Shown here piece after piece: positions 214 to 1,242 of a DNA stretch of 4,312 nucleotides. The notes under the pieces are model-generated. The model was given only the letters and a program-made list of their open reading frames with translations. It had not been told where the DNA came from and did no database searches. Source of the stretch: Escherichia coli (lineage in GTDB: Bacteria > Pseudomonadota > Gammaproteobacteria > Enterobacterales > Enterobacteriaceae); NCBI RefSeq assembly GCF_003334765.1, contig NZ_QOWT01000068.1; one strand, written 5' to 3'. Each line of letters opens with the position of its first letter. The stretch's first letter is position 1. The position numbers and the translations under genes are program-made.

Positions 214-1242
214 ATGAACCACTCCTTAAAACCCTGGAACACATTTGGCATTGATCATAATGCTCAGCACATTGTATGTGCCGAAGACGAACAACAATTA
301 CTCAATGCCTGGCAGTATGCAACCGCAGAAGGACAACCCGTTCTTATTCTGGGTGAAGGAAGTAATGTACTTTTTCTGGAGGACTATCGCGGCACGGTGA
401 TCATCAACCGGATCAAAGGTATCGAAATTCATGATGAACCTGATGCGTGGTATTTACATGTAGGAGCCGGAGAAAACTGGCATCGTCTGGTAAAATACAC
501 TTTGCAGGAAGGTATGCCTGGTCTGGAAAATCTGGCATTAATTCCTGGTTGTGTCGGCTCATCACCTATCCAGAATATTGGTGCTTATGGCGTAGAATTA
601 CAGCGAGTTTGCGCTTATGTTGATTCTGTTGAACTGGCGACAGGCAAGCAAGTGCGCTTAACTGCCAAAGAGTGCCGTTTTGGCTATCGCGACAGTATTT
701 TTAAACATGAATACCAGGACCGCTTCGCTATTGTAGCCGTAGGTCTGCGTCTGCCAAAAGAGTGGCAACCTGTACTAACGTATGGTGACTTAACTCGTCT
801 GGATCCTACAACAGTAACGCCACAGCAAGTATTTAATGCGGTGTGTCATATGCGCACCACCAAACTCCCTGATCCAAAAGTGAATGGCAATGCCGGTAGT
901 TTCTTCAAAAACCCTGTTGTATCTGCCGAAACGGCTAAAGCATTACTGTCACAATTTCCAACAGCACCAAATTACCCCCAGGCGGATGGTTCAGTAAAAC
1001 TGGCAGCAGGTTGGCTTATCGATCAGTGCCAGCTAAAAGGGATGCAAATAGGTGGGGCTGCGGTGCACCGTCAACAGGCGTTAGTTCTCATTAATGAAGA
1101 CAATGCAAAAAGCGAAGATGTTGTACAGCTGGCGCATCATGTAAGACAGAAAGTTGGTGAAAAATTTAATGTCTGGCTTGAGCCTGAAGTCCGCTTTATT
1201 GGTGCATCAGGTGAAGTGAGCGCAGTGGAGACAATTTCATGA
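214..1242 (+). CDS. murB: UDP-N-acetylenolpyruvoylglucosamine reductase (MurB), peptidoglycan precursor synthesis
   Basis: 342-aa ORF from the six-frame track. The translation ([54 protein letters not shown]...) is recognisable as E. coli MurB, a FAD-dependent reductase. Shine-Dalgarno-like AGGAAA at 203-208, 5 nt before the ATG at 214. Confidence 0.95.

Follow-up and report, generated by a model that had tools for sequence, protein, structure and literature searches.

The start codon of birA overlaps the stop codon of murB in Escherichia coli, and we consider it probable, at roughly 0.6, that birA is translated by termination-reinitiation (TeRe) at this −4 junction, with probable additional entry of ribosomes de novo. 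Our best estimate is that the reinitiated share is substantial and the coupling partial. The junction itself is real, under selection, and already catalogued, and it belongs, as an ordinary case, to the class of gene junction most common in bacteria. The analysis concerns one window, a 4,312-nt stretch of E. coli DNA (contig NZ_QOWT01000068.1 of assembly GCF_003334765.1), together with the corresponding loci of relatives at increasing evolutionary distance.

In the window, murB occupies positions 214–1242 on the + strand and encodes UDP-N-acetylenolpyruvoylglucosamine reductase (342 aa; TGA stop at 1240–1242), and birA occupies 1239–2204 on the same strand and encodes the bifunctional biotin-protein ligase and bio operon repressor (321 aa; TAA stop at 2202–2204). 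The open reading frames and RefSeq agree on these boundaries, 4-bp overlap included. A first-pass annotation had named both genes from the letters alone, and the names are right: the murB product matches PDB 1mbb over residues 1–342 (E = 8e-238), and the birA product matches PDB 1bia over residues 1–321 (E = 5e-211) with one substitution. That full-length match covers the N-terminal helix-turn-helix (HTH), ligase, and C-terminal domains of a group II biotin protein ligase/bio repressor, and the domains PF08279, PF03099, and PF02237 are present in BirA homologues. The sole difference from PDB 1bia lies at codon 245 (window 1971–1973), which specifies Lys here and Glu in the crystallized K-12 protein, so that the window derives from a strain other than K-12. 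Several E. coli chromosomes match the whole window at 100% identity, and all 5,426 complete E. coli genomes have the locus. The two genes are flanked by the rrnB tail (1 to ∼125) on one side and by coaA (2233–3183, − strand), genes for tRNA-Thr, Tyr, Gly, and Thr (3545–3986), and tufB (from 4101) on the other, and Brandis et al. (2019) describe murB-birA-coaA as having been inserted between two ancient operons, rrnB and tufB. Many draft genomes hold the locus on an assembly piece of ∼4.1–4.9 kb that carries only murB-birA-coaA; the rrn and tRNA/tufB repeats on either side are apparently where the assemblies break.

Read directly from the window, the junction is cgcagtGGAGacaatttcATGA at 1221–1242, or cgcagtGGAGacaatttcATGAagg when extended to 1245. 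A GGAG Shine-Dalgarno (SD) element for birA lies at 1227–1230, where the last base of the MurB Val338 codon (GTG) is followed by the Glu339 codon (GAG), and an 8-nt spacer (1231–1238) separates it from the ATGA tetramer at 1239–1242 in which the birA ATG (1239–1241) and the murB TGA (1240–1242) are combined, all on the + strand. The positions of GGAG, ATG, and TGA had been given exactly to the base by the first-pass annotation, and the overlap, the placement of the SD inside murB, and the association of the −4 geometry with termination-reinitiation were all borne out. The two co-directional reading frames have 4 nt in common, birA has no intergenic leader, and its AUG has two bases in common with the murB UGA. 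Upstream of the junction, a TGA in the birA frame (1212–1214) stands nine codons 5′ of the ATG, and because no ATG, GTG, or TTG occurs in frame between it and 1239, the ATG at 1239 is the first possible birA start. The −4 configuration is evident in the sequence, the list of open reading frames, RefSeq, and Supplementary Table S2 of Huber et al. (2023), where murB/birA is entered as −4, “CMPLX not”; the latter entry, which marks the pair as forming no complex, agrees with the annotation's description of MurB and BirA as functionally unrelated. Its further statement that the arrangement is known for this locus holds for the overlap, which both RefSeq and the 2023 table record, but not for the coupling: a full-text literature search, to which the primary papers of the 1980s–90s were out of reach, returned no experiment on murB-birA translational coupling.

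The strongest evidence that the junction matters comes from comparison of species. We collected the birA loci of 80 Enterobacterales species (BirA 77%–99% identical), in 79 of which murB lies directly upstream of birA; the remaining locus ends just upstream of birA and was excluded from the counts. An NTGA overlap of −4 is present in 79/79 species (47 ATGA and 32 GTGA), so within this sample the geometry has not drifted at all. The switch between ATG and GTG starts corresponds to a synonymous exchange of GCA and GCG at the final codon of MurB, and among 62 last-codon MurB alanine codons the alternatives that would destroy the start, GCC and GCT, were never seen. At −12 to −9, 66 species carry the 4-mer GGAG, 10 carry AGAG (in most of which a following G yields GAGG), 2 carry TGAG, and 1 carries GGAA. 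Around these fixed elements the sequence is free to vary, with 40 different 8-nt spacers among the 79 species and all synonymous alternatives in use at the codons around the SD. The MurB Glu339 codon is GAG in 78 species and GAA in 1, whereas at other conserved glutamate columns the GAG:GAA ratio ranges from 15:64 to 51:28. By parsimony on a neighbor-joining tree of both genes (median pairwise nucleotide distance 0.295), the Glu339 site changed once, compared with a median of 18 changes over 21 conserved glutamate columns (Glu339 included), and it has the lowest count of synonymous changes in all 385 conserved columns of the two genes. This degree of conservation above a free synonymous background indicates purifying selection on the birA SD and start codon, and we infer that the Glu339 codon is frozen as GAG (78/79) because it supplies birA's SD. 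Glu339 illustrates with textbook clarity how a regulatory signal can constrain synonymous sites inside a coding region, and the visibility of selection on an embedded SD at a silent MurB site is the one modestly instructive result of this work.

A deeper sample, built from representatives at 40%–60% BirA identity and named from cluster members, extends the pattern; a direct search for homologous proteins had yielded only BirA sequences nearly identical to that of the window. Among relatives with BirA 43%–54% identical, murB is still directly upstream and always overlaps birA where the two adjoin: the overlap is −4 at four loci (L085, L089, L090, and L092), −8 in Moritella marina (L087) and at L091, and −13 in Candidatus Enterovibrio escicola (L083). 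No spaced pair occurred among the sampled lineages in which murB abuts birA, and one locus (L094) had no recognizable murB upstream of birA. The arrangement thus reaches beyond Enterobacterales, and its exact register is flexible. In an Orbus-like locus (L082, 163–3472), murB and birA are separated by a gene for an MFS transporter; this inserted gene still has a 17-nt overlap with birA, and a GGAG lies 5 nt upstream of the birA ATG.

Motif statistics, on the other hand, carry no weight. The ATGA tetramer alone is uninformative (37 occurrences in the window vs. 42 expected), and GGAG-N8-ATGA occurs once against an expectation of 0.10, with at least one match in 19/200 shuffles. It is the conservation of the junction and its position at two verified gene ends, not the motif, that make it non-random. 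Moreover, co-directional genes are spaced at −4 more often than at any other distance, both in E. coli and across prokaryotes (PMC12548453, PMC10666635).

Three models have been put forward for such junctions, namely TeRe, the opening of an inhibitory structure by the ribosome on the upstream gene, and independent de novo initiation (PMC6728339, PMC12548453). Under the first, a ribosome ending MurB would halt with UGA in its A site; once the peptide is released, the small subunit or the whole ribosome may be kept on the mRNA by SD:anti-SD pairing, and a two-base re-registering onto the AUG would then start BirA. Fresh 30S subunits probably also load at the same SD, and for that reason the coupling is likely to be partial and not absolute. 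The net outcome would be BirA synthesis at about half the MurB rate.

Several observations are consistent with this mechanism. The distance between stop and start is favorable, being −4 in the window and in 79/79 species and −4, −8, or −13 in distant relatives, and coupling is known to fall steeply with distance, collapsing at ∼20 nt (PMC10666635). The SD, GGAG inside the 3′ end of murB, coincides with the most constrained synonymous site, and the SD:anti-SD duplex for birA (−6.4 kcal/mol) falls within the range of strictly coupled pairs. Of native E. coli −4 pairs studied experimentally, 4/5 were coupled, with menDH ∼60% coupled and bioBF uncoupled, and removal of the SD lowered reinitiation in 4/5 E. 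coli pairs (PMC6728339). Because four pairs were coupled and bioBF was not, the geometry is predictive and insufficient, and coupling of murB and birA, at least in part, is probable on the strength of that geometry. Protein synthesis values tell a compatible story. Ribosome profiling by Li et al. (2014), tabulated as mass × copies in Dataset EV6 of Mori et al. (2021), gives 228 copies of MurB and 131 of BirA per generation, a ratio of 1.74, and mass fractions from mass spectrometry (MurB ∼9.9e-5, BirA ∼5.2e-5) agree with the profiling (Mori et al. 2021). Downstream synthesis no higher than upstream fits reinitiation, for which it is necessary and as proof of which it is insufficient; a MurB:BirA ratio of 1.7:1 is compatible with any model. 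The translation-efficiency table of Burkhardt et al. (2017) lists murB at 1.01 and has no entry for birA.

Like hyfH-hyfI, astD-astB, and ydbH-ynbE (PMC6728339), murB-birA has a co-directional ATGA overlap with the SD inside the upstream reading frame, and its SD:anti-SD energy is comparable with theirs (−6.2 to −9.2 kcal/mol). Coupling of those three pairs was demonstrated with premature-stop reporters, whereas murB-birA is known here from sequence; further, Huber et al. (2019) predicted stable structures at the ribosome-binding sites (RBSs) of those coupled pairs, whereas RNAalifold found none conserved at murB-birA. The pairs menD-menH and bioB-bioF have the same ATGA geometry and encode enzymes that form no complex, as do murB and birA. 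bioB-bioF also resembles murB-birA across species in lacking an extended RBS structure, but the bioF SD is very weak (−2.0 kcal/mol) and that of birA is moderate and strongly conserved. In trpB-trpA and trpE-trpD (cited in PMC6728339), the start likewise sits beside the upstream stop with the SD in the upstream gene; the trp products, however, belong to one pathway, as subunits or as steps, and are needed in matched amounts, whereas MurB and BirA have no known functional relation.

The alternative that survives best, which we regard as possible and clearly less probable than TeRe, is independent de novo initiation, in which free 30S subunits bind the internal GGAG whatever the state of murB translation and the overlap is a product of compaction or a frozen accident, as at bioB-bioF. 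A strongly conserved birA SD is equally expected under this explanation, which is also favored by the failure to find a conserved occluding structure. There are also direct precedents, since bioBF is fully uncoupled and ∼40% of menH translation is de novo (PMC6728339), and −4 junctions are thought to be common partly through the ease with which they evolve (PMC12548453). An overlap can, in addition, persist simply because it can hardly be removed without shortening or lengthening an essential protein. Against it stand the coupling of 4/5 tested E. coli −4 pairs, the birA SD energy, which resembles that of coupled pairs and not that of bioBF, and the constancy of the overlap, which holds in all 79 species and in distant orders with no spaced lineage, although a neutral spacing should show some drift.

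Much less probable, in our judgment, is a promoter of birA's own inside murB that drives most of its expression, so that no ribosome would arrive from murB and the overlap would have no bearing on the bulk of BirA synthesis. Essential downstream genes in E. coli commonly have such internal promoters. Scanning of the + strand within 214–1238 gave no σ70-like site, however, and no terminator was detected between murB and birA; both results come from crude consensus scans, and the terminator scan also missed a hairpin at 90–122 that looks like the distal rrnB terminator. The two genes moreover change together in Shigella RNA-seq. The lack of intergenic space, the lack of a promoter-like site inside murB, and this joint response together suggest that murB and birA form a two-gene unit on one mRNA. 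We take EcoCyc to list them as one transcription unit as well. Neither gene is mentioned in the supplements to SMRT-Cappable-seq, and a literature search on birA transcription and promoters added nothing.

The likely 3′ end of this transcript, and also of that of coaA, is a hairpin at 2208–2227. The 28-nt gap between the birA stop (2202–2204) and the coaA stop (2233–2235), at 2205–2232, is filled by this one G+C-rich element, which lies between the convergent genes, is terminator-like on the − strand, and folds on both strands with z-scores of −3.9 and −3.6. Because it folds well in both directions, it is probably a shared bidirectional terminator. Upstream of murB, the hairpin at 90–122 is followed by a U-run and lies ∼90 nt before the murB ATG (−22.7 kcal/mol, z −5.3); no σ70-like murB promoter was found between it and 214. 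The same 130 nt of rrnB tail occur at 100% identity in five records of a plasmid collection, of which three are small, at 6.5, 9.1, and 42 kb.

The remaining model, in which the birA RBS is sequestered in RNA structure and opened only by a ribosome translating the end of murB, after which new 30S subunits initiate, is the least probable of those weighed here. The E. coli minimum-free-energy (MFE) fold does pair GUGG of the SD region with CCAC in birA codons 6–8, an 8-bp CAAUUUCA/UGAAAUUG stem spans the birA start, and the SD is predicted to be unpaired with a probability of only 0.06 in E. coli. The fold is nevertheless no better than that of shuffled sequence (z −1.0), its pairing partners are not conserved (RNAalifold returned 0 conserved pairs at the junction over 32 species), and RBS accessibility over 79 species is mid-range, with percentiles centered near 0.4–0.6. 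Fold, RNAalifold, and accessibility, metrics of limited power, therefore gave no stable structure that sequesters the birA SD and start. That limit became apparent when the folding metrics were calibrated on the five pairs of Huber et al. (2019) from MG1655 (L096–L100). Those investigators had tied strict coupling to RBS structures and the uncoupled state of bioBF to their absence (PMC6728339), yet local MFE and RBS unpaired probability failed to separate coupled from uncoupled among the five −4 pairs, and ydbH-ynbE, which is strictly coupled, has the most open RBS/start region of the five. The structural test is thus weak in both directions, and because the metrics failed calibration, structure says nothing on the degree or strictness of murB-birA coupling. 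In DNA terms, a perfect 8-bp inverted repeat, CAATTTCA at 1232–1239 and TGAAATTG at 1261–1268, brackets the birA start; it is confined to E. coli and E. albertii, is absent in other genera, and does not fold significantly.

Production of a MurB-BirA fusion by frameshifting was considered and dropped for want of support. In P0001 and P0002, two long proteins that contain BirA, the additional domains are unrelated and none is from MurB.

If birA is translated by TeRe, the practical consequences are local, and importance outside the murB-birA locus is small. BirA concentration sets both the capacity for protein biotinylation and the repression of the bio operon, and a tie of its translation to an essential cell-wall gene is relevant to engineering of murB or birA, to the reading of polar effects of murB knock-downs, and to the use of birA as a tool. 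An E339 GAG→GAA change would weaken the birA SD and leave the MurB protein unaltered. A more ambitious proposal is that the overlap is more than compaction and that, in at least three orders of Gammaproteobacteria (Enterobacterales, Vibrionales, and Alteromonadales), selection keeps it so as to hold BirA at ∼0.57 of MurB translation. We consider this unlikely; were it true, biotin repressor/ligase dosage would follow envelope-precursor synthesis, and with it the bio operon set-point, and the conserved Val-Glu near the MurB C-terminus would be a protein-level footprint of the birA RBS and not a requirement of MurB.

On its other side, birA has a second recurrent neighbor. In every context seen, a pantothenate kinase gene adjoins birA, yet the kinases are non-homologous: the window has a type I coaA of the PRK family (2233–3183, − strand), convergent with birA, whereas three loci of distant Gammaproteobacteria have a type III coaX of the Pan_kinase family (L089, 1447–1866; L092, 2081–2833; L094, 1200–1949) that is co-directional with birA and overlaps its stop. 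This looks like non-orthologous displacement in place. Listed in the tables of Huber et al. (2023), birA-coaX resembles murB-birA in being a widely conserved close or overlapping co-directional pair of birA with an unrelated housekeeping gene, and differs in that birA is the upstream partner. Within the window, the coaA reading frame called mechanically reaches a TTG at 3339 (2233–3339, − strand; 368 aa), whereas RefSeq starts the gene at the ATG at 3183 (316 aa), and the additional stretch is probably untranslated.
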